A stretch of DNA of 63,693 nucleotides, counting the filler. It is 4 parts of 4 records of this genome, joined end to end, with 100 filler letters (N's around TTAATTAATTAA, not from the genome) between each part and the next. Parts side by side here need not be neighbours in the genome. Positions count along the whole stretch, not along the records: positions 14,051 to 27,652 come from DRR723986_12877; 3 more parts are not named here. One strand, 5' to 3'. The position numbers and the translations under genes are program-made. The notes beneath the pieces were generated by a model. That model worked only from the letters and a program-made list of their open reading frames with translations. It was not told the DNA's origin and did no database searches. Positions within the stretch are counted from its first letter, which is position 1. The number at the start of each line of letters is the position of its first letter. Shown here in pieces: positions 1,068 through 28,615 of the stretch.

Positions 1068-1071
1068 GTAG

Positions 1072-1713: not shown

Positions 1714-1765
1714 AGTAAATTCATATACCCTTTACAGATTCAACGATACAGACAATGGAGTCACC

Positions 1766-4980: not shown

Positions 4981-4987
4981 TCGGGTT

Positions 4988-5758: not shown

Positions 5759-5890
5759 GGCGGAACTCTGGATAGGACAGGCCCATACGCTGGTTAGATC
5801 GATACCCGGCCAACTCCCTGCCAGAATGCCCGCTAAATATTACCTTCTTACTATTTTATTTCAATCATTGTGAATCTGACTTTAGGCTAA

Positions 5891-5912
5891 CCCCGGCCAG
5901 AGAGGGCCGGGG
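5891..5912 (-). terminator. GC-rich hairpin downstream of Fe-ADH, possible terminator
   Basis: CCCCGGCC-AGAGAG-GGCCGGGG, about 20 nt after the ADH stop; the U-tract is weak. Confidence 0.45.
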
Positions 5913-5932
5913 CGAGATATGCCTCCGAGGTA

Positions 5933-9266: not shown

Positions 9267-10007
9267 ATGAGCTACTATCTGGAATTTCTGGCACTGATCT
9301 GGTTTTTTGTCTGCTGGGGAGGGTACACCTGGTATTCGCGCAATCGCGCCAACTCTCGCTCGTGTCTGTCGAACACCCTCGATCTATACCGGGAAGACTG
9401 GATGCGGGTCATGCTCAAGCGTGAAAACCGTATTTCAGACGCCTCGGTTGTCGGTAACCTGGAACGCAACGGAGCGTTTTTTGCGTCCAGCTGTCTGCTG
9501 ATTCTCGCCGGTATTATCACCGCCCTCGGCTACACCAGCGAGGCTATGGAAATTTTTGCCACCATGCCATTTTCCGCTGTGCCCAGTCGTGAAATCTGGG
9601 AATTGCGATTGGTGGTGTTGCTGGTGGTCTTTATTTACGCGTTTTTCAAGTTCACCTGGTCCATGAGAATGTACAATTTCGTGGCCGTCATGATTGGCAG
9701 CGCGCCGCTACCAGACGACAGCAAAACCAGTCCGGCAGCGAGAGAGGCCTTTGCCCGCAGCGCCGGCAACATCTGTAACCTGGCCGGCGACGCGTTTAAC
9801 CTTGGCTTGCGTTCTTACTACTATGCCCTGGCTGTGGTGGCCTGGTTCATTCATCCGGTGGCCTTTATGGCTGCCTCAACCCTGGTGGTGTACGTACTCT
9901 ACCGCCGAGAATTCCACTCAGATGCATTATCCGCCCTGCGCGACGGCAAGGTCTTCGAAGAAGCCATACCCGCCCGTGTCGATGCGGACGTAAAATCCAA
10001 GAACTGA
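9267..10007 (+). CDS. DUF599 family membrane protein
   Basis: Several TM helices with the FFASS, FFKFTWSMR and FNLGLRSYY pattern. Confidence 0.78.
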   Translation: MSYYLEFLALIWFFVCWGGYTWYSRNRANSRSCLSNTLDLYREDWMRVMLKRENRISDASVVGNLERNGAFFASSCLLILAGIITALGYTSEAMEIFATMPFSAVPSREIWELRLVVLLVVFIYAFFKFTWSMRMYNFVAVMIGSAPLPDDSKTSPAAREAFARSAGNICNLAGDAFNLGLRSYYYALAVVAWFIHPVAFMAASTLVVYVLYRREFHSDALSALRDGKVFEEAIPARVDADVKSKN

Positions 10008-10025
10008 TCTGCAGGACAGTCCTGA

Positions 10026-10496
10026 ATGAATGATGAAACCCGAATAAACCGGGTTAACCGGTTTATCAGTACGCTCAACCAGGCAAGGGAACTGGGTCTG
10101 AACGCAACGGAGGCGGGTGAAGGCTATCTGGTTATGGAGCTGCCTTACAGCGACAAGATTATTGGCAACCCGGACACTGGAGTTATCCATGGTGGCGCTA
10201 TCACGACCCTGATGGACACCGCCTCCGGTTCGGTAATGATCTGTGGTCTGGATGAATTTGAGCTGTGTCCGACCCTGGATCTCAGAGTGGATTACATGCG
10301 CCCGGCGGAGCCCCGGAAGCCGGTGTACGCGAGGGCAGAGACCTACAAGATTACCCGTAACATCATCTTTACGCGCTGCGAGGCCTATCAGGAGGGGGGT
10401 GAAACCATCGCCAATTGCGTGGGCACCTTCATGCGCATTGGCAAAGAAGCCACGCCGAAATCCTATCGCGACCTGATCACCGGAGGTGAGGAATGA
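10026..10496 (+). CDS. PaaI-family hotdog thioesterase
   Basis: GNPDTGVIHGG and TLDLRVDYMRPA. Confidence 0.87.
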   Translation: MNDETRINRVNRFISTLNQARELGLNATEAGEGYLVMELPYSDKIIGNPDTGVIHGGAITTLMDTASGSVMICGLDEFELCPTLDLRVDYMRPAEPRKPVYARAETYKITRNIIFTRCEAYQEGGETIANCVGTFMRIGKEATPKSYRDLITGGEE

Positions 10497-13524: not shown

Positions 13525-13950
<426 letters not shown>

Positions 13951-14050: not shown

Positions 14051-14074
14051 GCTCTACCGCTGAGCTACGCCGGA
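14051..14074 (-). tRNA. tRNA 5' fragment, probably alphaproteobacterial tRNA-Asn
   Basis: Reverse complement is TCCGGCGTAGCTCAGCGGTAGAGC. The anticodon is lost in the gap. Confidence 0.72.
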
Positions 14075-14232: not shown

Positions 14233-15909
14233 TTATTGCGAAGCGGAAATGCCTCTTTCGATGAGAGTGTCCAAATCAGGCGCTCCATAGAGGATACGGC
14301 GTGGTTTCAGTTGGTCATCCGTGGTTTGCGCGGTTGATCGCCCCAAAAACTGCGCAATTGTACCCGGCGCAAACACCATAACCCGCGGAGGTGGGATGTA
14401 GTCTTCTCGCCTGCTTTTGTAGGCAAGATTGGACCGCCCAAGGGCCGCATCCAGATCGTTCGCCAGCATATCTAGGTTTCCGAGGGACGTCTCGCCCTCT
14501 GGCTCCAACATCCACAGGTACCGTTCGGTCGTGCCCCCGTTTTCTAGGGTAACGCCTGCATCATTCAGCGTGACACCTCTCAACGCCATGACTTCGGACA
14601 GGGCCTGATCTATGTCAGCTTCGGTCGTCATTTCATGTACTGCTGACAGTTGCCCGCCGCGCCGACGTAGGAACGTTAGCCTAGGCGCGGAATTGTGCCA
14701 TCCCGTGATCCGAACAATGTCCCCGATATCATAGCGCATGAGCCCGTGATAATTGGTTGTGACAATTCGGTACTCTTTACCAACCTCTACCTCGTGTGAA
14801 AGAACCGTTTCCGGGTTTGCAGTTTGCCATTGCTCCTGCGGGACGAATTCAAAAAATCCGGTGTTTACAGCCAGCGTTGCTGACCCATCATTCAAAGCCG
14901 TGTGAACCCCAAAAATCGCTTCTGTAGACGAATACAACCCTCCAAAGATCGGCAGCGCACCAAACGCGTCGGCGATCCTGGGCAAATAGGGATCAGTGGC
15001 CGCCCCACTCGAGGTGAACAAAGCGGACAGCCCCGGCCAGATATCCAAGGGTTTCAGGTCCTGTTTGGCCACAAGGATGCGTTCCAAGGTATCGGCGCGG
15101 GTCGGATTAGGCGGCAACATGCGGCTCAGACGCGTACGGGTTTCGCCATCCAGATCGATGCAGTCAGGAATTCCACCTTTGCGTAGCATAGCGATCAACA
15201 AGGGCGCGTCTTGGGCCAATTGCCCGGCAATTTGCAGCAGGAACGGCGGGAAATTCCCCGAGATAAACCGCAAATCTGGGTCCCGCATTGCAAAAAGAAA
15301 GCTCATGATGTGGCGTTGGCGGACATTTGGAATTGTCATGACATCAAAAGGATAAGGCGTCACGATCCGCGCCGAGTATTTGCTGCGATTTAGGCTGTGT
15401 GAACAGGCGCTGGTGTATCCATATGGAACACCGCCTTCGGTATGCCCCATCATGGCAGCGCTGCTTGTGACCATCAGCCGCCCATTCGGAAGGCCCTCTT
15501 TCCGCAACGCCCGCACCAAGTGTCCCGCTGAAGCAAGTCGTGCCTTTTGTCGTATGGCGTGTGATTTTCGGGTGATCGGGATCAGTTTCCGTTTTCCAGT
15601 TGTTCCGCTGCTTGAGGCCAAACACAAAACGGGTTGGGGTGACGTGATCACCTTTTCTCCCCTGGCAATCCGCTCCGCAAATGGGGCAAAGCCGTCATAA
15701 ATCTGCAGCGGCACCTGTTTGCGAAAAGAAACTGCATCCATCTGTTCATTAAGACCTAGGGCGCGCCCCAAGGCCGAAGGTGCAGTATAGTCCAAAATTT
15801 CCTGCAAAGTTCTTGTCTGGGCCTGACGACAGTCATGAGTGCTCTTTTCAAACTGTGCTGCTTGATAGAGCGCCGCCTGTGTCAGTAGGAATCGAATGGG
15901 TATAGACAT
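14233..15909 (-). CDS. GH3 (auxin-responsive) family acyl-adenylate/amide ligase
   Basis: The three GH3/ANL motifs SSSGTTGKRKLIP, YSSTE and MRYDIGD; also FRKQVPLQIY and GFFEFVP. Confidence 0.88.
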   Translation of the reverse strand: MSIPIRFLLTQAALYQAAQFEKSTHDCRQAQTRTLQEILDYTAPSALGRALGLNEQMDAVSFRKQVPLQIYDGFAPFAERIARGEKVITSPQPVLCLASSSGTTGKRKLIPITRKSHAIRQKARLASAGHLVRALRKEGLPNGRLMVTSSAAMMGHTEGGVPYGYTSACSHSLNRSKYSARIVTPYPFDVMTIPNVRQRHIMSFLFAMRDPDLRFISGNFPPFLLQIAGQLAQDAPLLIAMLRKGGIPDCIDLDGETRTRLSRMLPPNPTRADTLERILVAKQDLKPLDIWPGLSALFTSSGAATDPYLPRIADAFGALPIFGGLYSSTEAIFGVHTALNDGSATLAVNTGFFEFVPQEQWQTANPETVLSHEVEVGKEYRIVTTNYHGLMRYDIGDIVRITGWHNSAPRLTFLRRRGGQLSAVHEMTTEADIDQALSEVMALRGVTLNDAGVTLENGGTTERYLWMLEPEGETSLGNLDMLANDLDAALGRSNLAYKSRREDYIPPPRVMVFAPGTIAQFLGRSTAQTTDDQLKPRRILYGAPDLDTLIERGISASQ

Positions 15910-15979
15910 ACTTGATTGTGCTCTTTTGACGTGGTGGCCCCTTGTGATTCAAGAGCCATCAGTTTGAAAAGAAATGAAC

Positions 15980-17059
15980 CTAAGGGGTAACTCTTCCCAT
16001 CCATCCCATAAAAATAGCCCATCCCAGAGCACCTGCAATCCGGATAAGGTGGTGCAGCGCGACCAATACCGGACTTAATCCAAGGCTCAGAGCGATCAGG
16101 CTCAGCTCTGCCACACCACCTGGCGCGAAACACAGAACCAATGCCTCAAAGCCTGCCGAGCTATAGGGGTTCACCCACCATGCCGCGAGGAAGGCCAGAG
16201 GTAAAGTCACTCCCAACACACACAACCCGCTTGTGAATCCCCTGAGCAATGCGCTGAGTGAGGTCCCCGCGTAACGCACGCCAAGACTGATGCCGACAAC
16301 AACCTGCGCCCCAGCAATCAACCACGCGGGTGGATCTATCTGAATAGGGCCGAAAAGGCTAAGCACCGCCCCAACAGCCACTGGCCCAAGAAGGTGCGCA
16401 GCTGGCAGACGCAAAAATCGCGCAGCGCTCATCCCCCCAGTTGCAATCCCGATCAACATCAGGACATCAAACACTTTAAACGTTTCAGGGGATTCATTCA
16501 TCGACCGGGAAACGCGGATGGTTTCCCCAGACATAAAAGACAAGATGAGCGGCACGGTTATGACAACCAATAGGATCCGAACGAGATGTTGCAGGCTTAT
16601 GCGCGCCGCATCTCCACCAGCTTGTTCCCCCAGAACCGAGGCTTCGATCAAACCGCCCGGTAAGCTGGCATAGAAAGCTGTGGGGCGATCATACCGCGCC
16701 AAAGTACGAAGGACTGCGTACCCTGCCCCATGCATGACCAACATAAGCGGAACCACCAACATTAAAGAGAACGAGAGACCATTCATGTCTATCGCTTCGG
16801 CTTGAGAAAACTGGGCACCAATCATGGCGCCCAATAGCGATACGCCGATCTTACGAAAAGCCACGGGAAAGGATGGCGTCACCCCCCAAGTCGCAGAAAC
16901 CACGATCGAATAGGTCGCGACAGCAAGCAAGCTCCCTAATAAATAGGGCAAGGGACCATCCAACCAGATCATGCTAACACTGCCCAAAGCCGCCACGGCA
17001 AGACACACCAGCATGCTGCCTGCATTGGGTAGGGTTTTCAAATCAAAGCGCAAATTCAA
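15980..17059 (-). CDS. AbrB-family (AidB regulator / putative ammonia monooxygenase) membrane protein
   Basis: Duplicated hydrophobic halves with PLPYLLG/PAAHLLG, PGGLIE/PGGVAE and HLVR/HLIR. Confidence 0.85.
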   Translation of the reverse strand: MNLRFDLKTLPNAGSMLVCLAVAALGSVSMIWLDGPLPYLLGSLLAVATYSIVVSATWGVTPSFPVAFRKIGVSLLGAMIGAQFSQAEAIDMNGLSFSLMLVVPLMLVMHGAGYAVLRTLARYDRPTAFYASLPGGLIEASVLGEQAGGDAARISLQHLVRILLVVITVPLILSFMSGETIRVSRSMNESPETFKVFDVLMLIGIATGGMSAARFLRLPAAHLLGPVAVGAVLSLFGPIQIDPPAWLIAGAQVVVGISLGVRYAGTSLSALLRGFTSGLCVLGVTLPLAFLAAWWVNPYSSAGFEALVLCFAPGGVAELSLIALSLGLSPVLVALHHLIRIAGALGWAIFMGWMGRVTP

Positions 17060-17288
17060 GACGGTCCATTTCTAAAGATCACTCGAAAAACGTGGTTGGC
17101 TTCGCTGTCTCCGACCCTGCCTATCTTATCCATTTTGGTCGATCACTGAAAACGCCACCAATCAGAAACGTGGTTCAGTTTGCATACAAATGCAAACACA
17201 TCTCTGGCTTCGGCGCTGGCGCTTGCAACAATTCCCACCAACATCGAAAAATGTGATATGGCTTCGAAAACAAAGGTAAAATGCGAAC

Positions 17289-18152
17289 GTGCCGCCCATT
17301 TTCATCTTATCCAGCCCCAGATCATATTCGTCCTTGTTTGGCACAATGCTGGGTGAACATCCTGATCTCTTCGGTTTTCCCGAAATGCGCCTTTTCGCGG
17401 CCGAAACGGTGGGTCAGCTTCAACGCAGGTCACGTTTGTACCGGATTTTTACGCTGGACGGGATACACCGCACCCTTGCGCTGTTGGAATTTGGCGGACA
17501 ATCAGCTGATCAGGTTCAAGAAGCCATCGCATGGCTAAACTGCCGGCGAGAATGGACAACGGCCTACCTTTGGGCACACCTTGGGGAACGGGTTGCGCCG
17601 CGGACCTTGCTGGCCAAAGAGCCCATTCTAACAGCACATCCAAATTTCCTGCGTCGCACCGACCGTATTTGCCCGAATGCCAAATATATTCACCTCATCC
17701 GGGACCCGCGCGATGTGCGCCTCTCTATTCAAGAATCGTTTCAAGGCATTCACCAAAGGTTCGGTATCCCTTTGCATTGGATCGTAAAAGACGAGGCCAT
17801 CTGGACCTATTGCAACAAGCGGATCGTAGACTTCTTGCACACGATCCCTCAGGATCGAAAAGTCACGGTCAGAGGCGAAGACCTGATGACCCGACCCGAA
17901 ACCTTATTTGGCGATCTAACAACGCAGCTTAACCTGCCCTTTGACGCTGACATTTTTGAGCAAATTCTGCACCCGGAAAACGGGCCGTTTGCCCATGTCG
18001 GCCCCGCTAACGCACCGTTGGGAAATGACGCGAAATTTTTACAAAACCCGATACTACGCCAACGTTCCGAGAGTTCTAGAGCACCCACAGACGGGTTTAG
18101 CCGCTCGTCTCAGGCCTTGGCAACAAAGCTGGGGTACCAAATAAACACGTAA
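17289..18152 (+). CDS. PAPS-dependent sulfotransferase
   Basis: 5'-PSB-like SPRSYSS...LGEHP, KEP, and 3'-PB HLIRDPRDVRLS; GTG start. Confidence 0.8.
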   Translation: MPPIFILSSPRSYSSLFGTMLGEHPDLFGFPEMRLFAAETVGQLQRRSRLYRIFTLDGIHRTLALLEFGGQSADQVQEAIAWLNCRREWTTAYLWAHLGERVAPRTLLAKEPILTAHPNFLRRTDRICPNAKYIHLIRDPRDVRLSIQESFQGIHQRFGIPLHWIVKDEAIWTYCNKRIVDFLHTIPQDRKVTVRGEDLMTRPETLFGDLTTQLNLPFDADIFEQILHPENGPFAHVGPANAPLGNDAKFLQNPILRQRSESSRAPTDGFSRSSQALATKLGYQINT

Positions 18153-18190
18153 GCGGGGTTTACAGAGGGTGCCCGATACCCCCCTAATAG

Positions 18191-19390
18191 ATGAAACTTC
18201 AACGCAAGACGGTATTGATGTTCAGAAAAACATGGATTTCTTGGCTTCAACTGCGCCACCAAAAGGCGCAAACTGTTTCCGCCGCTTTGGGCATCACTTT
18301 CATCACTGTTCTCTTGTTCATGCAGATTGGGTTTCGCTCCTCCTTCCTGAACACCTTGCTGGATCTTCCAGCCAGCTTTAACGCTGATGCCGTCATGTTG
18401 AACTCATCTGCTGTTACGGTACTCCGCACCCCCACATTTTCGGAACTGCGCCTCAATCAAACTCTGGCTTTTGAAGAGGTCACACGCGTCGCTCCAATTT
18501 ACTGGTCCAGCGTGTTGATGCGCGACCCTGAAGGGGGTGAAAAATATCTGCGAAAGGTACAAGCCATTGGTTTGCCGCTGACTTGGGATGTCATGTTGCT
18601 GGACAGCGTTTATGGGCAATACAACAAGCTCAAAATAAAGCGAAATGTGCTGATCGACCAACGATCCAAAAAGTCGTTTTCGCAGATCATCGACTCTGTA
18701 AAGTCTGGCGAAGATTATAGCATCGAAGTGCGCGGTGGTCGCCATCAAGCGCGCATTCGAGTGACTGGTCTGTTCGATGTTGGCGTTAACCAATCCGCGA
18801 ACTCACACATCATAACCAGCGACGAAACTTTTATGGAAGTGTTTAACCGACCGCGTTCTAAAATCAATCTGGGACTGATCCAACTGCACCCCGGATCAGA
18901 TGCAACGCTGGTTGCCGAGAAAATGAACGCATATCTCCCTGAAGATGTGAAAGTTGTAGCTCTGCCTGACTTGTTAAATCAGGAGCGAGATTTTTATGAG
19001 TTTCAAACGCCAATCGGGATCATTTTCCGATTTGGTCTAGGCGGGGCTGTCGCCGTTGGGATCGTCATTCTTTATCAGATCCTGTTTCAGCTGATCTCTA
19101 AATACATCCGTGACTTTGCAACGCTTAAGGCCATTGGGTTCAGCAACGGACAACTGCGCCGGATCGTTCTTGGGTCCGCATTGATGCTGGCTGTGCTTGG
19201 GTTTCTACCTGGCCTCGGGCTCAGTTTTCTCATGTATGATGTCATTGCCAAAGCTACCGCTCTGCGGTTCGAAATGACGTGGGAGGTCGCCGTTATCGTC
19301 TTTGGGGCCATCGCTTTTATTTGCGTAATCTCGGCTCTGTTGGCTATTCGCAAACTCAACGACGCCGATCCAGCGGATCTTTTTGGGTAG
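18191..19390 (+). CDS. devC: ABC transporter permease, DevC family
   Basis: SWLQL...ALGITFITVLLFMQIGF, VGIVILYQIL...FATLKAIG and C-terminal KLNDADPADLF. Confidence 0.85.
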   Translation: MKLQRKTVLMFRKTWISWLQLRHQKAQTVSAALGITFITVLLFMQIGFRSSFLNTLLDLPASFNADAVMLNSSAVTVLRTPTFSELRLNQTLAFEEVTRVAPIYWSSVLMRDPEGGEKYLRKVQAIGLPLTWDVMLLDSVYGQYNKLKIKRNVLIDQRSKKSFSQIIDSVKSGEDYSIEVRGGRHQARIRVTGLFDVGVNQSANSHIITSDETFMEVFNRPRSKINLGLIQLHPGSDATLVAEKMNAYLPEDVKVVALPDLLNQERDFYEFQTPIGIIFRFGLGGAVAVGIVILYQILFQLISKYIRDFATLKAIGFSNGQLRRIVLGSALMLAVLGFLPGLGLSFLMYDVIAKATALRFEMTWEVAVIVFGAIAFICVISALLAIRKLNDADPADLFG

Positions 19391-19397
19391 TCCAAAC

Positions 19398-20546
19398 ATG
19401 TCAAACACAGACGATGCAATCGTAAAAATCCGCGGATTAAAACACAGTTACAAAGACGCCTCTGTGATGAAGCAAGTATTGCACGGGATCGATATAGACG
19501 TGCGACCAGGCCAAAATGTGTTTCTTACCGGCTATTCAGGATCGGGAAAAACGACCCTGATTTCATTGGTTGGCTGCCTTCGTTCAGTCCAAGAAGGCAG
19601 CCTGAAACTGTTTGGTGACGAGCTCCACAAAGCCAACTCGCGCAAACTGTTGGAGATGCGCAAACGTGTTGGCTATGTGTTTCAACATTTCAATCTTCTC
19701 GACTTCATGTCGATCCGACAGAACGTTCAGCAAAGCCTTGAAATTCAATCGGATTACAATCCCAAAACAGCCCGCGCACAGTCAGAAGAAATGCTAGAGG
19801 CCGTGGGTCTGGGGGATCGCGTCAATGACTTTCCCGCGGATCTGTCAGGCGGGCAAAAGCAGCGTGTTGCCATTGCCCGCGCCTTGGTCCACCGCCCAAA
19901 ATTACTGATCGCAGATGAGCCTACGGCCGCTTTGGATACATCCACGGGCCGTGACATTATTGACCTCGTTCAACGTCTATCCAAAGCCCAGAACAGTGCG
20001 GCCATCATTGTGACGCACAACATGCGTATTCTCGATAGTGCAGACGAAATTTTGCATATGATTGATGGCCGCATTGGCACCGCGATCACCGAACAAATCT
20101 CTCTTGTGTTGCCAAATCTCGACGACCGCCACCTTGCCGAGATCGCATCCAAAGCGCTCTCACGCGAATTCCAGCCCGGTGAGCTGATCTTAAAACAAGG
20201 CGATCCCGCTGACGCGTTTTTTATTCTGGTCAAAGGGGCTGTGAACGTGTTTCGTCACGAACCCAATGGCACCCGGAGTGAACTGGCCCATTTCCACAAA
20301 CGCGGCACGTACTTTGGTGAAATGGGTTTGTTGACAGAGAATGGCCGTCGAAACGCATCAATCGAGGTGCGTGGGGATCAGCCGGCGCGCGTCTTAGAGA
20401 TCAAAGGCGCTGACTTCTCGGAAATGATTGGTCGGTCTCGTGCGACGCGGGCTGTGATCACCGATGAAATGTGGTCCCGATTCAATGTGGACACACAGGC
20501 CGAGCAACCACCCCTCTCACCGCAATCAGGGGTGAATGACGACTGA
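19398..20546 (+). CDS. devA: DevA-family ABC ATPase fused to a C-terminal cyclic-nucleotide-binding domain
   Basis: GYSGSGKTT, LRSVQEGSL, LSGGQKQRVAIARALV and DEPTAALD, followed by PGELILKQGDPADAFFILVKGAV...YFGEMGLL...RRNASI (cNMP fold). Confidence 0.87.
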   Translation: MSNTDDAIVKIRGLKHSYKDASVMKQVLHGIDIDVRPGQNVFLTGYSGSGKTTLISLVGCLRSVQEGSLKLFGDELHKANSRKLLEMRKRVGYVFQHFNLLDFMSIRQNVQQSLEIQSDYNPKTARAQSEEMLEAVGLGDRVNDFPADLSGGQKQRVAIARALVHRPKLLIADEPTAALDTSTGRDIIDLVQRLSKAQNSAAIIVTHNMRILDSADEILHMIDGRIGTAITEQISLVLPNLDDRHLAEIASKALSREFQPGELILKQGDPADAFFILVKGAVNVFRHEPNGTRSELAHFHKRGTYFGEMGLLTENGRRNASIEVRGDQPARVLEIKGADFSEMIGRSRATRAVITDEMWSRFNVDTQAEQPPLSPQSGVNDD

Positions 20547-21542
20547 GACCTGTAAATTAGTCAGACCAGCCACATGATGACTATCCTCATCATTCAAAAG
20601 TATTTTAACTTCTACGACGCGCGCATCTACGTCTGCGGTGGGGTTGTTTGACAACAGTTCATTGCGCGACACCGTCAGGCCAATTTTCTTCACAACACCC
20701 TGAATTTTTTGATCAATCCCGTCCGCAACCACAGAAACGCTTTGCCCGGGTTTAACCTTCAAAATATCACTTTCATAGATTTCGGCTGACACCCACATAC
20801 GGTCAACGAAGCCCATATCGACAAGTCCAGAAGGACCAATCCGTTCGCCCGCTGTAGCGTGTATTTTCAGAATAGTTCCATCAGTCGGGGCGCGTACGAA
20901 TGTGCCCTCCAAAGCAATCCGCGCATGCCCTACATTTGCACGTGCGCTGATCAGCTCCGCTTCGGCAATCAGAATATCTTCGGGGCGAATGGTTGCTACG
21001 GCGGCGAGCGTTGCTTCTGCCTCATTCAGGCGCCCTTCGGTCACGTCCACACGGTTGCAGTTCTGTAAAAACACGGCCTCCGAAATAATCTTTCGTTCAT
21101 ACAGATTCTGCTGACGGATGCACTCTTTGACAACGTTTCCCAGCTCTTTCTTCAGCCTATCCACAACCGCTTCTTTGGCGTCCAGCTCACTTTGCATCGC
21201 ACCAGCTTGCACACGCGCCAGCTGGGCCTCTTGGACCTTAACCCTTGTTTCCGCTTGAATAAGGGCTGCCTGCATCAACGCATTGTCCCCCAACACGGCA
21301 ATCAGATCCGCGCGTTTGACGGTATCCCCTTCGGTCACCTTCAAGTCGTACACGATGCTATTGCTGATGGATGGTCCCCCGGCAACAGTTGTCACGCCAC
21401 CTTCGGGTTCAACATACCCAAGACCCGCCACCAAGGACGGAGATGCGCTGTTTTGAGCAAAGCCACTACTTGCCATCCCCATTCCCAAGGCAGCACACAT
21501 CAACAAGGGTTTCATAGCCATCCGTTTACCTTCTTCCATCAC
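20526..21542 (-). CDS. devB: HlyD/DevB-family membrane fusion protein
   Basis: GLGYVEPEG, lipoyl-like VTEGDTVK, coiled coil, VRAPTDGTILKIH, AEIYESDI, DARVVEVKI and LTNLQV. Confidence 0.85.
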   Translation of the reverse strand: MMEEGKRMAMKPLLMCAALGMGMASSGFAQNSASPSLVAGLGYVEPEGGVTTVAGGPSISNSIVYDLKVTEGDTVKRADLIAVLGDNALMQAALIQAETRVKVQEAQLARVQAGAMQSELDAKEAVVDRLKKELGNVVKECIRQQNLYERKIISEAVFLQNCNRVDVTEGRLNEAEATLAAVATIRPEDILIAEAELISARANVGHARIALEGTFVRAPTDGTILKIHATAGERIGPSGLVDMGFVDRMWVSAEIYESDILKVKPGQSVSVVADGIDQKIQGVVKKIGLTVSRNELLSNNPTADVDARVVEVKILLNDEDSHHVAGLTNLQVSVVIHP

Positions 21543-21543
21543 T

Positions 21544-22683
21544 TTAGGTCTGAATATCTAAAGTCCGTTCGTACATACGATATGTCTTATAGTGACGCCC
21601 TGAGGCCCCACGGATCAATCCCAAAGATCGCGCATTGTCTTCCCAAACCCAAGACAGTTCAGCTCGTTGGTATGGGTGCCCCCCCGATGCCCCGCCATCC
21701 ATTCCAAGATAAACAAGAGCAGGACCCAAAGCGAAACGCGGTTTCTGGAACTCAGGCAGGATCGCAACCGCCAACACGCGCGCCGTATCCAGGCTGCGTC
21801 GTTTCCATAAGAGATGGGCAAACACAAGCGGCGCTGGCCATCCTCGCGAGGCCCGCAATGCTTGATTAATATCCGGCAAGCCAAGCCAAAACCCAACCAC
21901 AGTTCCGTTGAATTCAGCGACGGGAAACAGCTTGGGATCAATTATGTGCCGCATTTGCGCTGCTTCATCCACGAATTCGGCGACATCGCGTTCGGTGGCG
22001 CTCCAATTGTCTTCAAAACTGGTCGCAAATATACCATGTATCGCGCGCAGATCGCTGCGCATCGCCTCACCTTTGGTGTGCACGGGTCGAAAGGTAATTC
22101 CTGCCCGTTGCGCCAACCGATACGCCCGTTCAAAGGCGGGTGCCAAAGGCTCCATTGTAAAGTCGAAAGCAAAGGCATCTCGAACCCCGTGCCAACCGGC
22201 GCGCTCAATCAAAGAGGGGTAATAGCGGGGATTATAGGGCATACGAATATAGGCAGGGTCATCAAAACCATCCACCAACGTAAGCCCACCGATGTGCGTA
22301 GACAGATCAATCGGGCCACGCCCCAACACACACCCCTGTTCTTTTAACCAGCGCGTTGCCGCTCTGAACAAAGCATCCGATACATCGTTGTCGTTAATGG
22401 TCTCGAAATATCCAAAGCTACCAACTTGCTTGCCTTCTTTGGCACAGAGGCGTGAATTGACCGAGGCGACGATCCGCCCCAATAGTTCCCCCGTGTCAGT
22501 CTCAGCAATGAACGCCTGAAACCGGCCATATTGCAGAAACTTTGACTGCGGTCCCAACTGGCCTTTGATGGCACGTGGCATGTCCGGAACCCAATTCGGG
22601 TCATCGCGATAAATAACATCAGGAACACGTTCGAACCGCCTCAAATCGCTTGAATTTTCAACTTTTCGAACGTGAATGTTCAT
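21544..22683 (-). CDS. GNAT-fold acyltransferase, YghO / bacterial ceramide synthase (bCerS)-like
   Basis: IYRDDPNWVP, GRIVA, GSFGYFE, GPIDLS, MPYNPRYY, LPDINQ, AELSWVWEDN and KTYRMYE. ATG 22683 overlaps the stop of the upstream PLP enzyme. Confidence 0.75.
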   Translation of the reverse strand: MNIHVRKVENSSDLRRFERVPDVIYRDDPNWVPDMPRAIKGQLGPQSKFLQYGRFQAFIAETDTGELLGRIVASVNSRLCAKEGKQVGSFGYFETINDNDVSDALFRAATRWLKEQGCVLGRGPIDLSTHIGGLTLVDGFDDPAYIRMPYNPRYYPSLIERAGWHGVRDAFAFDFTMEPLAPAFERAYRLAQRAGITFRPVHTKGEAMRSDLRAIHGIFATSFEDNWSATERDVAEFVDEAAQMRHIIDPKLFPVAEFNGTVVGFWLGLPDINQALRASRGWPAPLVFAHLLWKRRSLDTARVLAVAILPEFQKPRFALGPALVYLGMDGGASGGHPYQRAELSWVWEDNARSLGLIRGASGRHYKTYRMYERTLDIQT

Positions 22684-23969
22684 CCGGCGTTTGCCGCTGC
22701 TGATTGCGGATATAGATCTGAACGCATCTGATCTAAGGAACCAACAAGTTTGTTGATTTCGGCCTGAGTATGTTGAGCTGTGATAACAGCGCGCAATCTT
22801 GGTCGGGCAATGTACCAAACCGGCGACACCCAAACGCCATGCTCTTCGATCAAATATCGCGACACATGTTTGGGCGACACATCAGTCGGCAAAATCATCG
22901 GCAGGACATTGGTAGTGCCCAGAACCTCAAACCCGGCTTGCATCAAGCATTCGCGCGCATACGACGCATTCTGTTGCAGCCGTGTGACCAATTCAGGACG
23001 CGCACGAAGCTGTCGAATAGCTTCGGCAGCCGAGGCCGCAGCAGAAGGCGGCAACGAAATTGTCCCAATCGAAGTTGGACACGCATTCAACAATCGCTCT
23101 AAGCCTTTGGAATACGAACTGATCGCCGCCCCAGCAGAGCCTGCGAATTTTGAAAACGTCGTCAGGACCACGGGATTGACCCCTTTGTCCATAATCATCT
23201 CTGGCTTCATTCCATGATAGTCGAATATCCCGCCCCCATGGGCCCCAATGGCACCCGAAGCGTGCGCCTCGTCCAACACCAGGGTCGAACCCGGATAGTC
23301 CGCCAAGACATCAACGAGTTCAGGCAGCGGAACAATGGTCCCATCCATAGAAAAGACAGAGTCGGTGAGTAACAAAACCCTATCTCCTGGGCGGGCCAAG
23401 CGTTTCAATTTCTTTCTCAGATGAACCGTGTCGCAATGCTTGTAGCTTTGCACACGAACCTCAGGGCTATTGGTGAGCATCTTCCCCGACCGAGACCCTG
23501 CATTCACCACCGCAGTGGTAATACAACCGTGGTTCAAAAGATCACTCATCACCAGAACAGATCGCGTGTTGCTAAATCCCGGCACCGGGATCGCGAGATG
23601 GCAGAACCCATCCATAAAAGCCTGCAATGCCATCCAAGCATTCAAAAATAGATGGGTATGAGGAACCCCTTTGAGAATTTCAATCTCGCGCTCTAGGTCC
23701 TCATGTGGCGTACTGCGTCCACACAACGCCATGCACCCACTGTTAGAGGTTCCAAAATCCTCGATCGCTTGTATCGCGGCGTCTTTTACGGACCTGTCTT
23801 GGGAAAACCCCAAAATATCATTGTGGCAGAAATTCAGGACCTGATGCACCCTGCCCGTTCTCTTGCACTCCATGACAACCGTGTTGCCTTGTTTTTCTCG
23901 TACAACAAATTCGTCCGGATCAAGGTCGGCAGCGACAACGCTGCGGAGATAATCATCAACTACTTGCAT
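22680..23969 (-). CDS. PLP-dependent alpha-oxoamine synthase (serine palmitoyltransferase/BioF/CqsA family)
   Basis: NFCHNDILG, NHGCI, YKHCD, DSVFSMDG, DEAHASG and TFSK (PLP lysine). Confidence 0.88.
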   Translation of the reverse strand: MQVVDDYLRSVVAADLDPDEFVVREKQGNTVVMECKRTGRVHQVLNFCHNDILGFSQDRSVKDAAIQAIEDFGTSNSGCMALCGRSTPHEDLEREIEILKGVPHTHLFLNAWMALQAFMDGFCHLAIPVPGFSNTRSVLVMSDLLNHGCITTAVVNAGSRSGKMLTNSPEVRVQSYKHCDTVHLRKKLKRLARPGDRVLLLTDSVFSMDGTIVPLPELVDVLADYPGSTLVLDEAHASGAIGAHGGGIFDYHGMKPEMIMDKGVNPVVLTTFSKFAGSAGAAISSYSKGLERLLNACPTSIGTISLPPSAAASAAEAIRQLRARPELVTRLQQNASYARECLMQAGFEVLGTTNVLPMILPTDVSPKHVSRYLIEEHGVWVSPVWYIARPRLRAVITAQHTQAEINKLVGSLDQMRSDLYPQSAAANAG

Positions 23970-24047
23970 AGAAAACTCAAATTATTCAGGGACAAGCCAA
24001 TCCTTTAAAGCCTACAATCGAACTTAGATTTAAACAAGGATGTGCAC

Positions 24048-25034
24048 ATGCCCGAGCAAAAGACGGCTTTTGTGACAGGTGCAAACGGCTATGTTGGGTC
24101 GCACGTCGTCCGCCACCTCCTTGCGCAGGGCTATACCGTGACTGCCATGGTCAGAGCGAATTCTAACCTGGATCTGCTCGCGGACTCAGATGTGACACGC
24201 GTTGAATTTGATCTGGCTTTACCAAATCAAGCCAAACGCCTAACCGATGTATTATCCGGGATCGATCTAATCATACATACAGCGGCCTATGTGGATCTTG
24301 GCACAGTTGACCGCGCTTTGATGAAACGTGTCAATCTGGACGGGACCCACACCCTGTTAGAGGCGGCTCGCTCGGCGGGCGTTCCTCAATTTATCTATTG
24401 CTCCACAGTGCGCACGTTAGGCGACACAGCTGGGGCGCAGGTCGATGGGGACCACGTGCGCACCGACATGGGCTATGCCTCTTGCTATGATGAAACCAAG
24501 ACCCAGGCCGAGGCATTGGTCTTGGGCAGCAACCAACCTGGGTTTGCCACCTATTCGGTTCTGCCCCCTGGGATTTTTGGGCGCAACGAGCCCCATTTCG
24601 GCAAAGCTTTGCGCGCCTACTTAAACGGACATCTCCCGTTCTGGCCTGCACAGGATCGCCCCTTGGGTATGGTCCACGTCGAGGATTTGGCCGAACTGTT
24701 CCTTTTGGTGGCACAAAATGGCACCCCCGGAACGCGTTACATTGCATCTGCTGGCGAAGTCACCATGGGTGAGATATTTACAATGCTCGGGGAAATGACC
24801 CGGCGACGCCCCCCACCCGATATGCCTGAAAGTTTGGTGCGGGCTGCTGCTGTGGTCATGGATTGGATTGGATCATGGACTGGGCGAAATATGGTTCTGA
24901 ATAAAGAACGCATTGTGTTTCTATATGACAAGGTCGTTAGGACCGACCCATCCCGAAGCTATTCAGAGCTGGGTTGGGCCCCGCGTAAACCGCGTGAAAT
25001 TCTGGCCTCGATCCTTCCGGAAACGGAATATTAG
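24048..25034 (+). CDS. NAD-dependent epimerase/dehydratase (extended SDR; HpnA/DFR/CerR-like)
   Basis: TGANGYVG Rossmann motif, HTAA, VNLDGT, CST and YDETK (YxxxK). Confidence 0.88.
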   Translation: MPEQKTAFVTGANGYVGSHVVRHLLAQGYTVTAMVRANSNLDLLADSDVTRVEFDLALPNQAKRLTDVLSGIDLIIHTAAYVDLGTVDRALMKRVNLDGTHTLLEAARSAGVPQFIYCSTVRTLGDTAGAQVDGDHVRTDMGYASCYDETKTQAEALVLGSNQPGFATYSVLPPGIFGRNEPHFGKALRAYLNGHLPFWPAQDRPLGMVHVEDLAELFLLVAQNGTPGTRYIASAGEVTMGEIFTMLGEMTRRRPPPDMPESLVRAAAVVMDWIGSWTGRNMVLNKERIVFLYDKVVRTDPSRSYSELGWAPRKPREILASILPETEY

Positions 25035-25108
25035 GCACAATAGCACTTTTCTGTTACGTATTTTCTACGAGGCCCAGTGATCCGCAAAGATTTTCAAGGT
25101 GGCACGAT

Positions 25109-26713
25109 ATGAATGTACTATTGATCAATCCAAATTTTCCCACGTCTTTTTGGTCTTTCGAAGGGGCATTGAAGCTATTGGGTCGACAAGCGCTGTTGCC
25201 GCCATTGGGGTTGCTGACAGTTGCAGCACTCCTGCCGCAGGACTGGGAGTTTCGACTGGTTGATCGAGATTTTCAAACCTTGGAAGACACCGATTGGGAC
25301 TGGGCTGACCTTGTAATCATCTCAGGCATGATCGTGCAACGTGCTGACATGCTTGGCTTAATTCGCGAGTCAAAGCGGCGTGGCAAACCTGTTGCGGTGG
25401 GTGGGCCCTACGCCATGTCTCTACCCGATGAGGTGTTGGACGCAGGCGCTGATTTCGCCGTCTTGGACGAAGGGGAACTCACCATACCGATGTTCGTCGA
25501 AGCACTGCAAAATGGAGCAACGTCCGGAACCTTTACCGCCAAAGGGGAAAAGGCGGACATGCACACCAGTCCCAAGCCGCGCTTTGATCTGATCAACATC
25601 CACGACTACAATTCCCTTTCAATTCAATTCTCGCGCGGGTGCCCATTCTTATGTGAGTTTTGCGATATCATCACCTTGTTTGGGCGGCGACCGCGCACCA
25701 AAACCCCGGCCCAAATTCGCGAAGAGCTGGATCAGCTCTATGACATGGGGTGGCGTGGCGGCATCTTTATGGTGGATGACAATTTCATCGGCAATCGTCT
25801 AACTGTTAAACCTATGTTGGACGAAGTGATCGCTTGGCAAATTGAACATGAATTCCCGTTTACATTCACGACAGAGGCATCTGTGGACCTTGCCGAAGAT
25901 CCCGGTCTCATGTCGATGATGCGCAAAGCAAATTTCACCACCGTATTTGTTGGCATTGAAACGCCTGATGCGGACAGTCTTATCCATATTAAGAAAAAGC
26001 AAAATGTGCGTGGATCGCTGGTTGATCGGGTGAAAGCGATAAATCAATCCGGCCTGAAAATCATCGGCGGGTTCATTATTGGGTTTGACGGCGAGAAACC
26101 CGGCGCGGACAAGCGCATTCTCGAATTTGTCGAAGATGCTCAGATCCCTATGGTGATCGTCAGCTTGCTACAGGCTCTGCCCAAAACAGCCCTAACAGAT
26201 CGCTTACGTGCCGAAGGGCGATTGCTGGAAACAGAACGCGACGCGGATTTGAACTCCAATCGTTTGACGAATTTCGTCCCAACCCGCCCCCTTACCGAAT
26301 TGGCGCAAGAACATACTGCTATCTATGAAACCCTTTATGAACCAAGGAACTACATGGAGCGTGCCTATCGTCACGCCATGGCAACAAAGGATGGTGTCTG
26401 GCCAACAAAAGGTATCCCACCAAGTTCGTTCCCGTTGAATTTCAAGCAAGTGATGACGATGCTCAAAGTGCTCTCGCTACATGGCTTGATACGTTCGTCT
26501 CGTGGCTTGTTCTGGCGCGCCACGATTGATCTTTATCGAAACAACAAATCTGGGCTCAAGGGGTTTTTCTCGATGCTGGCGATGTTCGAACATTTCTATG
26601 TGTTCCGAGACGACGTGCAGAAAGAAATCGAGGGTCAACTGGCACTGCTATCCGAAGAAGACCAGAACCGCATCTGGAGCCCCCCTGAAGCTAGTGAGGT
26701 CAAGGCAGGATAA
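25109..26713 (+). CDS. B12-binding radical SAM enzyme (class B methyltransferase, HpnP/DUF4070-like)
   Basis: FWSF, PPLGLLTVAA, SGMIVQ, GGPY, RGCPFLCEFCDI (CxxxCxxC), VDDNFIGN and GIETP. Confidence 0.9.
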   Translation: MNVLLINPNFPTSFWSFEGALKLLGRQALLPPLGLLTVAALLPQDWEFRLVDRDFQTLEDTDWDWADLVIISGMIVQRADMLGLIRESKRRGKPVAVGGPYAMSLPDEVLDAGADFAVLDEGELTIPMFVEALQNGATSGTFTAKGEKADMHTSPKPRFDLINIHDYNSLSIQFSRGCPFLCEFCDIITLFGRRPRTKTPAQIREELDQLYDMGWRGGIFMVDDNFIGNRLTVKPMLDEVIAWQIEHEFPFTFTTEASVDLAEDPGLMSMMRKANFTTVFVGIETPDADSLIHIKKKQNVRGSLVDRVKAINQSGLKIIGGFIIGFDGEKPGADKRILEFVEDAQIPMVIVSLLQALPKTALTDRLRAEGRLLETERDADLNSNRLTNFVPTRPLTELAQEHTAIYETLYEPRNYMERAYRHAMATKDGVWPTKGIPPSSFPLNFKQVMTMLKVLSLHGLIRSSRGLFWRATIDLYRNNKSGLKGFFSMLAMFEHFYVFRDDVQKEIEGQLALLSEEDQNRIWSPPEASEVKAG

Positions 26714-26771
26714 CGGCTGGTAAAGTAATGAAAGCGAATGCCGCGTTGAAAGCCAAAGACCCAAGCGCACG

Positions 26772-27503
26772 ATGGATCCAGATCAGTTGATTGTGCGTCG
26801 CTCGCGCATGCTTCTGGCGCTCCTAACGATCGCGATGCTTACCCATAGCCTACCTGTTCTAGCAGAAACGCGCCTGTTCGATGTTCAGATGCTGGGCCGA
26901 ACATTGGGACAGATCACCTATAGGCAAACGAACAGAAATAACGGCACCCACAGCGCCTTAGCCGCGCATCTTAACAATACGCCTCTCGGGGTTTTTGATG
27001 GTGTTTTCAAAGGTGTACGACACCCTTCTATCGGCCCTGACGGCGGACCGGCCAACGAATACCGTGTCAAAAACGTTTCTCCCAAACGAACACGCGTGGT
27101 GTCGGTCCTTTTTCAAAATAAGCGTGTCGTGCAATCCAGCGTCACGCCCCCATACCAAAACGCGATGGTGCTCGACTTGGTAAACGCGCCCCTGTTTGCC
27201 ACCGATATGATTGATGCATTTGGCACCGTCTCCGTCCAGACGCGCTGTCCAAGTACATTGAGCATTTATGACGGCAGACGCCTCATCCGTGTTTCACCTA
27301 AGAACTCACAGCTGCAAGACAATAAACTGACCTGTGTGATGACCTATAAGGTCATCAAGGGGCCCGGCCACTTGCACCCCTTTGATTTTCGATCGGTTGG
27401 GGTTTCATTGACTTATGAGACAGATTTGACCGGTCAAATCGCGCTGAAGCAGATCAACTTAAAAGCTGGTGTTTTCAAGATTTCACTCATCCAAAAGAAC
27501 TAA
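26772..27503 (+). CDS. Exported beta-rich protein, DUF3108-like
   Basis: Signal peptide (…LPVLA|ET) and C...IYDGRR...C motif. Confidence 0.6.
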   Translation: MDPDQLIVRRSRMLLALLTIAMLTHSLPVLAETRLFDVQMLGRTLGQITYRQTNRNNGTHSALAAHLNNTPLGVFDGVFKGVRHPSIGPDGGPANEYRVKNVSPKRTRVVSVLFQNKRVVQSSVTPPYQNAMVLDLVNAPLFATDMIDAFGTVSVQTRCPSTLSIYDGRRLIRVSPKNSQLQDNKLTCVMTYKVIKGPGHLHPFDFRSVGVSLTYETDLTGQIALKQINLKAGVFKISLIQKN

Positions 27504-27545: not shown

Positions 27546-27584
27546 AAACAAGGCTCGATGCGTTTCCACATCGAACCTTGTTTT
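27546..27584. terminator. Bidirectional terminator hairpin between the DUF3108 gene and the tRNA
   Basis: AAACAAGGCTCGATG-N8-CATCGAACCTTGTTTT with one mismatch (a G-U pair on the minus strand). Confidence 0.7.
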
Positions 27585-27622: not shown

Positions 27623-27652
27623 TGGTACCCAAGGCCGGACTCGAACCGGCAC
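27623..27652 (-). tRNA. tRNA 3' fragment with CCA, probably tRNA-Leu
   Basis: Reverse complement GTGCCGGTTCGAGTCCGGCCTTGGGTACCA is a T-arm plus acceptor and CCA. The anticodon is not visible. Confidence 0.72.
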
Positions 27653-27752: not shown

Positions 27753-28615
27753 CCGGCGCGCTGGTCGCCCGCCACGACGCGGGCCTTGACCATGGCATAA
27801 CGCTCCCAGTCGCGCCCCTGATCCTGGTAATAGGTTTCCAGGGCGGCGAAGCTCAGGGCGAGCGCACCACTCTGGCCATATGGCCTCAAGCGCATATCCA
27901 CCCGAAACACGAAACCATCGGCGGTAATCTGGTCCAGCGCCTGAATCAGCCTTTGGCCAAGCCGGATAAAGAACTGCTGATTATCCAGAGCACGTCGGCC
28001 GCCATGGGTTTCGCCTTTTGAGGGAAACGCAAAAATCAGGTCGATATCGGAGGAAACGTTCAGCTCCCGGCCGCCTAGCTTGCCCATGCCAAGCACCACC
28101 ATTCTCTGGGGTGCCTCTTGCCCAGTTACCGGATCATCGCCCATGGGGGTACCGAACTCTTCACAGGCTCGCTCGTAAAGCCAATTCAAGGCACCATCAA
28201 TGGCGGTATCCGCAAAGGCACTGGTGGCCGTCATGGTTTCATGCAGATCAGCCCACTTCATGAGATCGCGCCAGATAATCCGGAACTGCACTTCCCGACG
28301 GTACTGGCGAAGTGCCGCATGCAACGCCGGTTCAGAGTCAACGTTCTGCAGGTAATCCCGCCAGCGATCAGCGAGCCAGGCCTCGGTGGTTGGTTCGGTT
28401 AAAGGCCGGGCAACAACGGCCGGCTGAATCTGCTCCGGATGTCTTTCAAGGGTTTGCCGGAGAAACAGGCTACGGGAAATAGCCTCTGCCACATCGGCCT
28501 CGGAGACATGGTCACCGGCCAGCCAGCCCGGCAGCCCCTCCGGGAATACCGATGGCCAGCATCCGGAAATCTCCTCCTTGAGCACTCCCGGCAGTGAAGC
28601 CCATGGCTCAGACAT
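27753..28615 (-). CDS. glnE: Glutamine synthetase adenylyltransferase, N-terminal part (truncated)
   Basis: [30 protein letters not shown] and GRDWERYA. Confidence 0.95.

Follow-up and report, generated by a model that had tools for sequence, protein, structure and literature searches.

Which molecule is made by a set of eleven tightly packed genes that fills a 13.6-kb roseobacter contig and is built around an alpha-oxoamine synthase (AOS)? The contig (positions 14051–27652) is the second of four in the window, the stretch of 63,693 bases that was analysed, in which N44-TTAATTAATTAA-N44 spacers stand between the contigs. The first-pass annotation of this DNA read the core of the cluster as the three enzyme classes used in bacterial ceramide synthesis, those of Spt, bCerS (CerS) and CerR; all eleven open reading frames (ORFs) are found where it placed them. 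On balance, we think that the cluster probably makes, tailors and exports an N-acylated amino-alcohol (ceramide-like) lipid, an assignment made with modest confidence. As judged by homology, the enzymes follow the logic of bacterial ceramide synthesis, with two of the three core enzymes drawn from other lineages and with a new accessory set. Gene content, homologies, fold, clade structure, co-occurrence and gene fusions are what is observed; from family membership and gene context we infer all of the chemistry and the product. The three core genes are the following.

22680–23969, minus strand: AOS of a distinct clade, 429 residues (PF00155, phylogeny)
21544–22683, minus strand: putative CerS-like tandem-GNAT N-acyltransferase, 379 residues (homology, structure model)
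24042–25034, plus strand: extended short-chain dehydrogenase/reductase (SDR), HpnA/3beta-HSD-like, 330 residues (PF01370, PF01073)

The AOS and GNAT genes overlap by 4 nt (ATGA) and a single nucleotide separates the GNAT gene from that of a DevB-type protein, the three being translationally coupled. The divergent SDR gene starts 72 nt from the AOS gene (78 nt when counted from an alternative ATG at 24048). The coupling of AOS to GNAT, and the placing of the SDR gene less than 80 nt away, are thus as first described.

By sequence, the AOS belongs to the alpha-oxoamine synthase superfamily, matching PF00155 (Aminotran_1_2) with 109.5 bits. The catalytic residues are retained (H146 of NHG, D233 and H236 of DEAH, the pyridoxal phosphate (PLP) lysine K274 of FSK and the carboxylate-binding R393 of RLR), and occupy the same alignment columns in ALAS, BioF, Kbl and Spt. 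Its top NCBIfam model is bioF (TIGR00858), with 208 bits against a cut-off of 426, followed by ALAS (163 bits), Kbl (158 bits) and CqsA-type enzymes (75 bits); no equivalog cut-off is reached. The Spt models score 149 bits (NF047600, cut-off 640), 148.5 bits (NF047599, cut-off 500) and 106 bits (NF047603, cut-off 670), while a control, the Spt of locus L089, gives 602 bits against the cut-off of 500. Pairwise, the enzyme is 29% identical to the Spt of the alphaproteobacterial locus L098 (E 4e-34) and 27% identical to a beta-type Spt.

The AOS tree contains 40 rows from 68 sequences, after five loci fetched twice had been dropped (removing four Spt duplicates) and the cyanobacterial cluster enzymes had been thinned to every third. 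Its references, labelled by NCBIfam and all over their cut-offs, are five cyanobacterial and two gammaproteobacterial BioF, two Kbl and one ALAS; three more BioF rows are labelled by similarity alone. The 21 cluster enzymes form one clade, with a support value (SH-aLRT) of 100 and a branch of 3.36 changes per column, and Spt (6 rows), BioF (10), Kbl (2) and ALAS (1) lie on the opposite side. All 21 share two insertions, one of 12 residues behind the PLP-stacking histidine and one of 7 residues ahead of the catalytic lysine, and a 4-residue deletion, with W(F/Y)(I/V)A(K/R)P in place of a PPTVP/PPATP-type loop. A PPATP-type loop before the carboxylate-binding arginine is a hallmark of Spt, and the six Spt rows have PPAxP-type loops (SHATP in one of them). 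The scores under the cut-offs, the position outside the Spt clade and the different active-site loop rule out the assignment as Spt. The phylogeny, which the first-pass annotation had called for, also places the enzyme apart from BioF; phylogenetically, it is neither BioF nor Spt and has a clade of its own.

That bioF is the best-scoring model, and that the region lies between two tRNA genes, would suit a housekeeping enzyme of the BioF/Kbl type with chance neighbours on a tRNA-flanked island. This is the least probable of the readings considered here: apart from the sub-threshold score, the separate clade and the start/stop overlap with the GNAT gene, a separate true BioF (457–466 bits) is kept in each of the five cyanobacterial carriers checked, and a related Rhodobacteraceae genome with the cluster, G022, possesses its own ALAS and Kbl.

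A further reading is harder to dismiss. Compared with chains in the PDB, the AOS stands at the same distance from ALAS, BioF/Kbl and Spt (107–110 bits, about 110 bits each), cysteate acyltransferase being further away (79 bits). Because of this equidistance and the clade's own active-site indels, the chain length of the substrate is unreadable from homology, and the enzyme might use a short or medium acyl-CoA. The product would then be a small soluble molecule that the pump secretes on a cyclic-nucleotide cue, for instance an amino-ketone or amino-alcohol with an N-acyl or N-acetyl group that acts as a signal or secondary metabolite. We regard this as rather unlikely.

The 379-residue GNAT protein has no Pfam match over threshold (PF00583, E 0.013). 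A structure model built with 17 homologues (pLDDT 78, pTM 0.76) was compared with known structures by Foldseek, and the matches are tandem-GNAT structures, including mycothiol synthase MshD, MAB_4324 and a glucosamine N-acetyltransferase (TMq 0.57–0.60, sequence identity 15% or less). The predicted fold is that of a tandem GNAT of the MshD type. Reference ceramide loci were obtained by searching with an alpha-type Spt model, which has strong matches in 19 of 151 Alphaproteobacteria and no strong match in G022, and by fetching 15–20 kb around six alphaproteobacterial matches. Locus L098 contains an AMP-ligase, an SDR, an acyl carrier protein (ACP) and Spt, the aasR-cerR-acpR-spt order, together with an LptF/LptG pair and, further on, a 383-residue ORF without Pfam matches (674–1825). 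In Caulobacter, the corresponding genes are CC_1165–1162 and LptF2/G2, with cerS being CC_1154 (excerpts of PMC11324152). The 383-residue ORF is taken as CerS because the layout of the locus matches that of Caulobacter, and not from a named sequence.

Residues 3–375 of the GNAT align to 8–383 of this protein, with 32% identity over 381 residues (E 3e-52), and tblastn finds the equivalent ORF in loci L100, L101 and L103 (E 1e-52, 2e-49 and 1e-35). The GNAT therefore matches the protein at the CerS position in four of the six spt loci, the other two ending early at contig edges. In a quick tree of 43 proteins, in which the cyanobacterial rows from L009–L082 were thinned to every third, the canonical CerS clade unites the four proteins from spt loci with five distant homologues from Rhodobacteraceae (SH-aLRT 98). 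The cluster clade has 32 rows, namely the window protein, three proteobacterial and 28 cyanobacterial ones (SH-aLRT 93). On this evidence, the GNAT is a CerS homologue in a sister clade and not a member of the canonical clade; of the original comparison with bCerS, the full-length homology stands and the canonical placement does not.

A search for longer relatives of the GNAT gave seven matches, of which two are informative fusions: an 810-residue protein in which a GNAT homologue is fused with a Spt-like AOS (473 bits with the CFB Spt model), and a 780-residue one that joins a CDP-alcohol phosphatidyltransferase to a GNAT homologue. Linking the GNAT family with AOS products as well as with the chemistry of lipid head groups, the two fusions count against a small soluble product, as does the position of the nearest placed relatives of the GNAT in ceramide loci. 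Proteins P0146–P0150, of about 790 residues or some twice the length of the GNAT, match 98% of its length with 31–35% identity and have GNAT Pfam domains; one of the five bears the name Thermoguttaceae. These proteins may represent the family in duplicated or fused form.

The third core enzyme, the SDR, matches PF01370 (104 bits) and PF01073 (101.5 bits) and has the motifs GANGYVG at residue 13 and YDETK at residue 149. It had been likened to CerR, and this does not hold. Against the CerR of L098, only 121 residues of the Rossmann fold align (36% identity, E 6e-14), and in tblastn against five canonical loci the E-values range from 9e-9 to 2e-14. In CerR, the GxxGxxG motif starts near residue 70, after an N-terminal extension of about 60 residues that is in line with its reported periplasmic location (PMC11087976, in part); the cluster SDR has no such extension. 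The HpnA model gives 151 bits with the cluster SDR (cut-off 368) and 59 bits with CerR, and SdmB comes next for the cluster enzyme with 113 bits, both scores being far under threshold. From these matches, the SDR is of an HpnA/3beta-HSD-like type rather than CerR-type.

HpnA and SdmB act as a reminder that the SDR and the B12 radical-SAM enzyme of the cluster, joined by a Rieske oxygenase in cyanobacteria, might instead tailor a hopanoid or sterol-like triterpenoid (compare HpnA, HpnP/HpnR and SdmA/SdmB), with the AOS and GNAT supplying an amino-acyl side group. The radical-SAM enzyme weakly matches HpnJ (60 bits) and HpnR (58 bits), and the cyanobacterial Rieske neighbour matches SdmA (234 bits). 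Every one of these scores is far under its cut-off (368, 600, 578, 650 and 600), the roseobacter cluster has no Rieske gene, and no match to hopene cyclase is present in the two roseobacter genomes G223 and G022 or in one of three cyanobacterial carriers tested (G177; the others, G173 and G174, have one). We consider a triterpenoid product highly improbable, and a hopanoid role was rejected on the lack of a cyclase match in G223, G022 and G177.

Do the three core genes travel together? In the protein collection, the GNAT family has 1216 matches at E ≤ 0.001, most of the named ones being cyanobacterial; the protein of Shimia abyssi is 69% identical. A scan of genome contigs places the GNAT in at least 598 loci, of which 80 were used for all neighbourhood counts; neighbours were accepted in tblastn at E ≤ 1e-10 over at least half of the query length, and many loci end at contig edges. 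The SDR lies beside the GNAT in 55 of the 80 loci and the AOS in 42. Homologues of DevA are found in 23, of GH3 in 10, of DevC and DevB in 6 each, and of the radical-SAM enzyme (52–61% identity) in 8–9. Clustering of the neighbouring ORFs gives DevA-like proteins in 24 loci, DevC-like in 21, MFS transporters in 21, Rieske oxygenases in 32, FA_hydroxylase in 15 and Mpo1-like proteins in 8. Genes of the last two families in the cyanobacterial versions speak against a small soluble product. The recurrence of GH3 and radical-SAM homologues beside the trio in cyanobacteria makes them part of the pathway family. The AbrB, sulfotransferase and ORF11 genes recur in one locus only, L003 of G022; the corresponding region of G223 aligns across the whole contig too.

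The typical order in full cyanobacterial clusters is amidohydrolase, Mpo1-like, FA_hydroxylase, GH3, MFS, Rieske, AOS, GNAT, SDR, DevA, DevC (L014, L061, L079). A conserved cluster of about 14 kb is present in L014, L061, L079, L012 and L057, with the amidohydrolase belonging to amidohydrolase_2 and the GH3 gene of L012 in two tandem copies. The cyanobacterial Rieske oxygenase is SdmA-like (234 bits, cut-off 600), and the Rieske/SDR pair weakly resembles the sterol C-4 demethylation pair SdmA/SdmB (234 and 156 bits, cut-offs 600). Two metagenome-assembled genomes (MAGs), one gammaproteobacterial (L007) and one of Azospirillaceae (L008), combine SDR-AOS-GNAT with DevC and a DevA fused to a cyclic-nucleotide (cNMP) domain, L008 also having DevB. 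In L008, a class-I SAM methyltransferase (9324–10217) adjoins DevC, at a place taken by other tailoring genes in the roseobacter version.

Of 401 sampled species of Cyanobacteriota, 28 have the GNAT at E ≤ 1e-60 and the same 28 genomes have the cluster-type AOS at E ≤ 1e-90, with co-absence in 373 of 373, counts in which related genomes are not independent. The two genes are adjacent in 22 carriers and on different contigs or far apart in six; such co-presence without linkage argues for a shared function, and the pattern as a whole is hard to fit to a housekeeping AOS with chance neighbours. Five whole cyanobacterial genomes checked separately all contain the AOS, in two of them outside the GNAT locus. 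One in-frame stop codon each is seen in L107 (G176:C5:441542-442822) and in the GNAT hits of G824, G659, G970, G790, G796 and G870; such stops in the cyanobacterial AOS and GNAT matches could be pseudogenes or sequencing errors of MAGs. The genes thus co-occur in other genomes, as the first annotation had asked to be checked, and do so beyond chance, the trio being found in other lineages.

Among 401 species of Rhodobacteraceae, a close GNAT orthologue is present in two, G223 (97%) and G022 (88%), the sole sampled species of their genus. Seven other species have homologues of 24–32% identity, five of which fall inside the canonical CerS clade. The accessory character of the cluster, found in 2 of 401 Rhodobacteraceae and 28 of 401 Cyanobacteriota species, would fit a secondary metabolite. 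As most GNAT homologues are cyanobacterial, transfer from cyanobacteria was considered. The AOS and GNAT trees match in shape, with a proteobacterial group beside a cyanobacterial one; a recent transfer was rejected, because the four proteobacterial versions lie beside and not inside the cyanobacterial group (SH-aLRT 83–91 in quick trees with a midpoint root).

The remaining eight genes, several of them predicted to serve in tailoring or export, are the following.

14233–15909, minus strand: GH3-family acyl-acid amido synthetase, 558 residues (Pfam)
15980–17059, minus strand: AbrB-family polytopic membrane protein, 359 residues (PF05145)
17289–18152, plus strand: sulfotransferase, 287 residues, heading the sulfotransferase-DevC-DevA run (PF13469)
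18191–19390, plus strand: DevC-type ABC permease, 399 residues (TIGR01185, FtsX domain)
19383–20546, plus strand: DevA-type ABC ATPase with a C-terminal cyclic-nucleotide-binding domain, 387 residues (TIGR02982, PF00027)
20526–21542, minus strand: DevB-type membrane-fusion protein, 338 residues (TIGR02971)
25109–26713, plus strand: B12-binding radical-SAM enzyme with DUF4070, 534 residues (PF02310, PF04055, PF13282)
26772–27503, plus strand: ORF11, exported protein, possibly DUF3108-like, 243 residues (hydrophobic N-terminus, language-model features)

Pfam domains confirm the GH3 ligase, the AbrB membrane protein and the radical-SAM enzyme named at first reading. The GH3 protein has the N, M and C domains (192, 92 and 31 bits) and the motifs SSGTTG (residue 100), YSSTE (326) and YDIGD (393). 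The AbrB protein matches PF05145 with 197.5 bits and TIGR03082 with 158.6 bits (cut-off 94.7), and has eight hydrophobic segments. B12-binding, Radical_SAM and DUF4070 domains are all present in the radical-SAM enzyme, with CPFLCEFC at residue 178. The sulfotransferase, too, is as announced, with a Sulfotransfer_3 domain (79.6 bits); we take PRSYSS at residue 10 and RDPRD at residue 138 to be its motifs for binding 3'-phosphoadenosine 5'-phosphosulfate.

The exporter is close to, and in part just short of, the DevBCA type originally named. DevB scores 220 bits, over its family cut-off of 129; DevA (293.4 bits, cut-off 295.8) and DevC (271 bits, cut-off 290) are slightly under theirs. These scores are another point against a small soluble product. 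DevC has an FtsX domain and four hydrophobic segments, and the expected ABC motifs are found in the ABC proteins of the cluster. The cNMP-binding domain of DevA (PF00027, 73 bits) covers residues 261–351, and the same fusion is present in L007, L008, L071 and L076, that is in four of four long forms checked. It suggests regulated secretion, and in this respect favours a secreted signal or metabolite. ORF11 has no Pfam match at E ≤ 10. A hydrophobic segment at residue 12 agrees with the annotated export; the DUF3108 label comes from language-model features alone (DUF3108 clusters, score 0.97, 26 of 30 matches, a recognition value under the benchmark of the tool), so ORF11 is possibly DUF3108-like, as a lead only.

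For the ceramide-like lipid that we favour, a route can be proposed. The AOS would form a 3-keto amine by the decarboxylative condensation of an amino acid and a fatty acyl thioester. The CerS-like tandem GNAT would N-acylate this amine, and the HpnA-like SDR, predicted to be cytoplasmic, would reduce the 3-keto group before or after N-acylation. The B12 radical-SAM enzyme may then tailor the lipid by C-methylation or another radical step, and the sulfotransferase may O-sulfate it, a step that would be specific to this roseobacter genus. The GH3 amido synthetase presumably adds an ATP-dependent amide bond, the least clear step. Finally, the tripartite DevBCA-type pump would move the product out of the inner membrane, possibly under cyclic-nucleotide control.

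Several points weigh against this route. An AOS that groups apart from Spt and has no PPATP-type loop does not imply a serine-derived sphingoid base, and the AOS tree was computed without rows for CqsA/LqsA, cysteate acyltransferase or the Spt of Bacteroidota. With 32% identity and a place in a sister clade, the GNAT could have a different acceptor, and what the SDR appears to share with CerR is the Rossmann fold only. Pumps of the MacB/DevCA type handle non-lipids as well. The sulfotransferase, AbrB and ORF11 genes are limited to two close species, so that operon position alone links them to the pathway. The cluster also has neither ACP nor acyl-ACP synthetase, both of which accompany canonical spt (excerpts of PMC11324152 and PMC11789144).

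How does the cluster compare with characterised systems? The primary bCerS/CerR paper is reportedly that of Stankeviciute et al. 2022 (Nat Chem Biol). The Caulobacter-type ceramide pathway (Spt, AcpR, AasR, CerS/bCerS CC_1154 and CerR CC_1164) uses the same three enzyme classes as the cluster, namely a PLP-dependent alpha-oxoamine synthase, an acyltransferase of about 380 residues and an extended SDR. In the cluster, by contrast, an AOS with indels of its own stands apart from the Spt clade, the SDR is of the HpnA-like type, and translational coupling links the AOS to an acyltransferase that is sister to CerS. Roseovarius tolerans makes roseoceramides from the rcc cluster, the product being a short-chain dihydroceramide; rcc shows high homology to the Caulobacter cluster and comprises five biosynthetic genes, the phosphodiesterase RccE and the MsbA-like transporter RccF (excerpts of PMC11789144). 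As far as the description of rcc goes, both it and, putatively, the present cluster are roseobacter ceramide-type gene sets with a dedicated transporter. None of the ACP, the AasR-type AMP-ligase, the phosphodiesterase or the MsbA-like ABC protein is found by Pfam and NCBIfam among the eleven ORFs, whose AOS and SDR also differ from the rcc types.

Locus L089 (G019:C147) was tried as a reference for CerS and CerR and rejected, its neighbouring proteins being unrelated to the cluster GNAT and SDR (E 0.19 and 9.8). Its positions 1–6953 contain a beta-type Spt (602 bits, cut-off 500) with ACP, fatty acyl-AMP ligase, metallophosphoesterase-like and NTP-transferase-like proteins, and a 382-residue protein that has neither a family nor any relation to the CerS-like GNAT. 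The phosphoesterase is reminiscent of RccE.

Compared with the DevBCA glycolipid exporter of heterocyst-forming cyanobacteria, the cluster has a DevB that passes the family threshold, a DevA that falls short of its own by under 3 bits and a DevC that does so by 19 bits, whereas its ATPase has the additional cNMP-binding domain, its devB belongs to another operon than devC and devA and is coupled to the genes of biosynthesis, and a gene for an outer-membrane partner is missing. OlsH, a planctomycete lyso-ornithine lipid synthetase of the GH3 type that N-acylates ornithine with ATP (PMC12493201, in part), is the only characterised bacterial lipid GH3 enzyme found in the literature searched. The GH3 protein of the cluster has the fold and the nucleotide-binding motifs in common with it, but scores 86.6 bits of the 620 needed with the OlsH equivalog (NF052613), and the cluster has no alpha/beta-hydrolase of the OlsI type. 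A literature search found no AOS/CerS-like/HpnA-like-SDR cluster in cyanobacteria or roseobacters, although the supplementary homologue lists of the primary bCerS paper and of PMC11334938 may name homologues. The variant is thus widespread and uncharacterised, and the combination of genes remains, as first suspected, without a characterisation in the literature searched.

Whose DNA is it? The whole cluster contig aligns end to end with a 337-kb contig of G223 at 95.1% nucleotide identity, and Rhodobacteraceae bacterium EL53 (L003 of G022) is 82% identical to it. The radical-SAM protein belongs to a 90% cluster named Phaeobacter/Roseobacteraceae. On these matches, the contig is Rhodobacteraceae chromosomal DNA, in agreement with the alphaproteobacterial origin first given. 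Its G+C content is about 0.52, compared with 0.55–0.57 for the neighbouring contigs and 0.40 for the last one. The window contigs stem from at least three organisms, one like Marinobacter, one like Algoriphagus and one of the Roseobacteraceae: contig 1 (1–13950) encodes one protein in a Marinobacter-named 90% cluster, contig 3 (27753–36987) is 97% identical to genome G001, and a SusD-like protein of contig 4 (37088–63693) clusters with Algoriphagus yeomjeoni. Such a mixture looks like a metagenome bin or the assembly of a mixed culture, and the neighbouring contigs are therefore uninformative on the host of the cluster. G001 matches the cluster contig in two short stretches and nothing more, and does not match contig 4; as it corresponds to the Marinobacter-like contig 3 and not to contig 4, the absence of the cluster from it is uninformative. 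ORFs at the ends of the neighbouring contigs (13528–13950 and 27753–28615) run into the N spacers; they look like a catalase-peroxidase and a glutamine-synthetase adenylyltransferase, and would then be truncated genes. Near-identical DNA for 17100–27000 (at least half of the sampled words) is found in nine public runs from five studies, labelled as coral, marine sediment, seawater, microbial mat and marine metagenomes, none of them recorded as RNA.

Three further features lie at the ends of the contig.

14051–14074, minus strand: piece of tRNA-Asn(gtt), 24 nt (contig base 1 is L130 position 17400, within tRNA-Asn 17377–17451)
27623–27652, minus strand: piece of tRNA-Leu(caa), 30 nt (contig base 13602 is L130 position 3798, within tRNA-Leu 3742–3827)
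27546–27583, strand not assigned: terminator-like hairpin after the last gene, 17-bp stem and T-runs (terminator scan)

The two tRNAs said to flank the contig are real, since both tRNA-Leu(caa) and tRNA-Asn(gtt) bound the region in G223 and L003, from which (the complete region of G223 being 95.1% identical) their identities were read; the window itself has only the 24-nt and 30-nt remnants, which is why ARAGORN finds no tRNAs in the whole of it. The remaining intergenic distances are 70 nt (GH3/AbrB), 229 nt (AbrB/sulfotransferase, divergent), 38 nt (sulfotransferase/DevC), −8 nt (DevC/DevA), −21 nt (DevA/DevB, convergent), 74 nt (SDR/radical-SAM) and 58 nt (radical-SAM/ORF11). This spacing suggests four transcription units: AOS>GNAT>DevB, SDR>radical-SAM>ORF11, sulfotransferase>DevC>DevA and AbrB>GH3. 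Promoter and terminator scans of the contig give 12 and 17 sites, compared with 11.4 and 17.1 expected from shuffled sequence, and thus not above chance; the hairpin at 27546–27583 and promoter-like sites inside the 72-nt AOS/SDR gap are weak leads only.

What would the cluster mean for the distribution of bacterial sphingolipids? Bacterial ceramide synthesis is recognised by the signature of Spt, CerS and CerR, and these three proteins were the queries of a published survey (PMC11334938). As the trio has only the CerS-like enzyme in common with this signature, the AOS and SDR of the trio would fall short of the E-value thresholds used in that survey. In cyanobacteria, according to excerpts of PMC8895605, the sole AOS of Nostoc punctiforme is BioF-like and no sphingolipid is made, the sphingolipids reported for Scytonema julianum and Moorea producens have a genetic basis that 'has yet to be reported', and none of the cyanobacterial sphingolipid enzymes has been characterised. 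The cluster family offers a concrete, clonable candidate for these genes. More tentatively, and with clearly less confidence than for the ceramide-like product itself, the trio may be a second, Spt-independent route to sphingolipid-like lipids and the genetic basis of those of cyanobacteria; the roseobacter product would then be a new class, built on an unusual (e.g. non-serine) long-chain base, O-sulfated, C-methylated and released via a cyclic-nucleotide-gated DevBCA pump. Roseobacters are known for their chemical exchange with algae, and the sulfotransferase, the B12 radical-SAM enzyme, the GH3 protein and the pump with its cNMP domain together point to a regulated lipid that is secreted or displayed at the surface.

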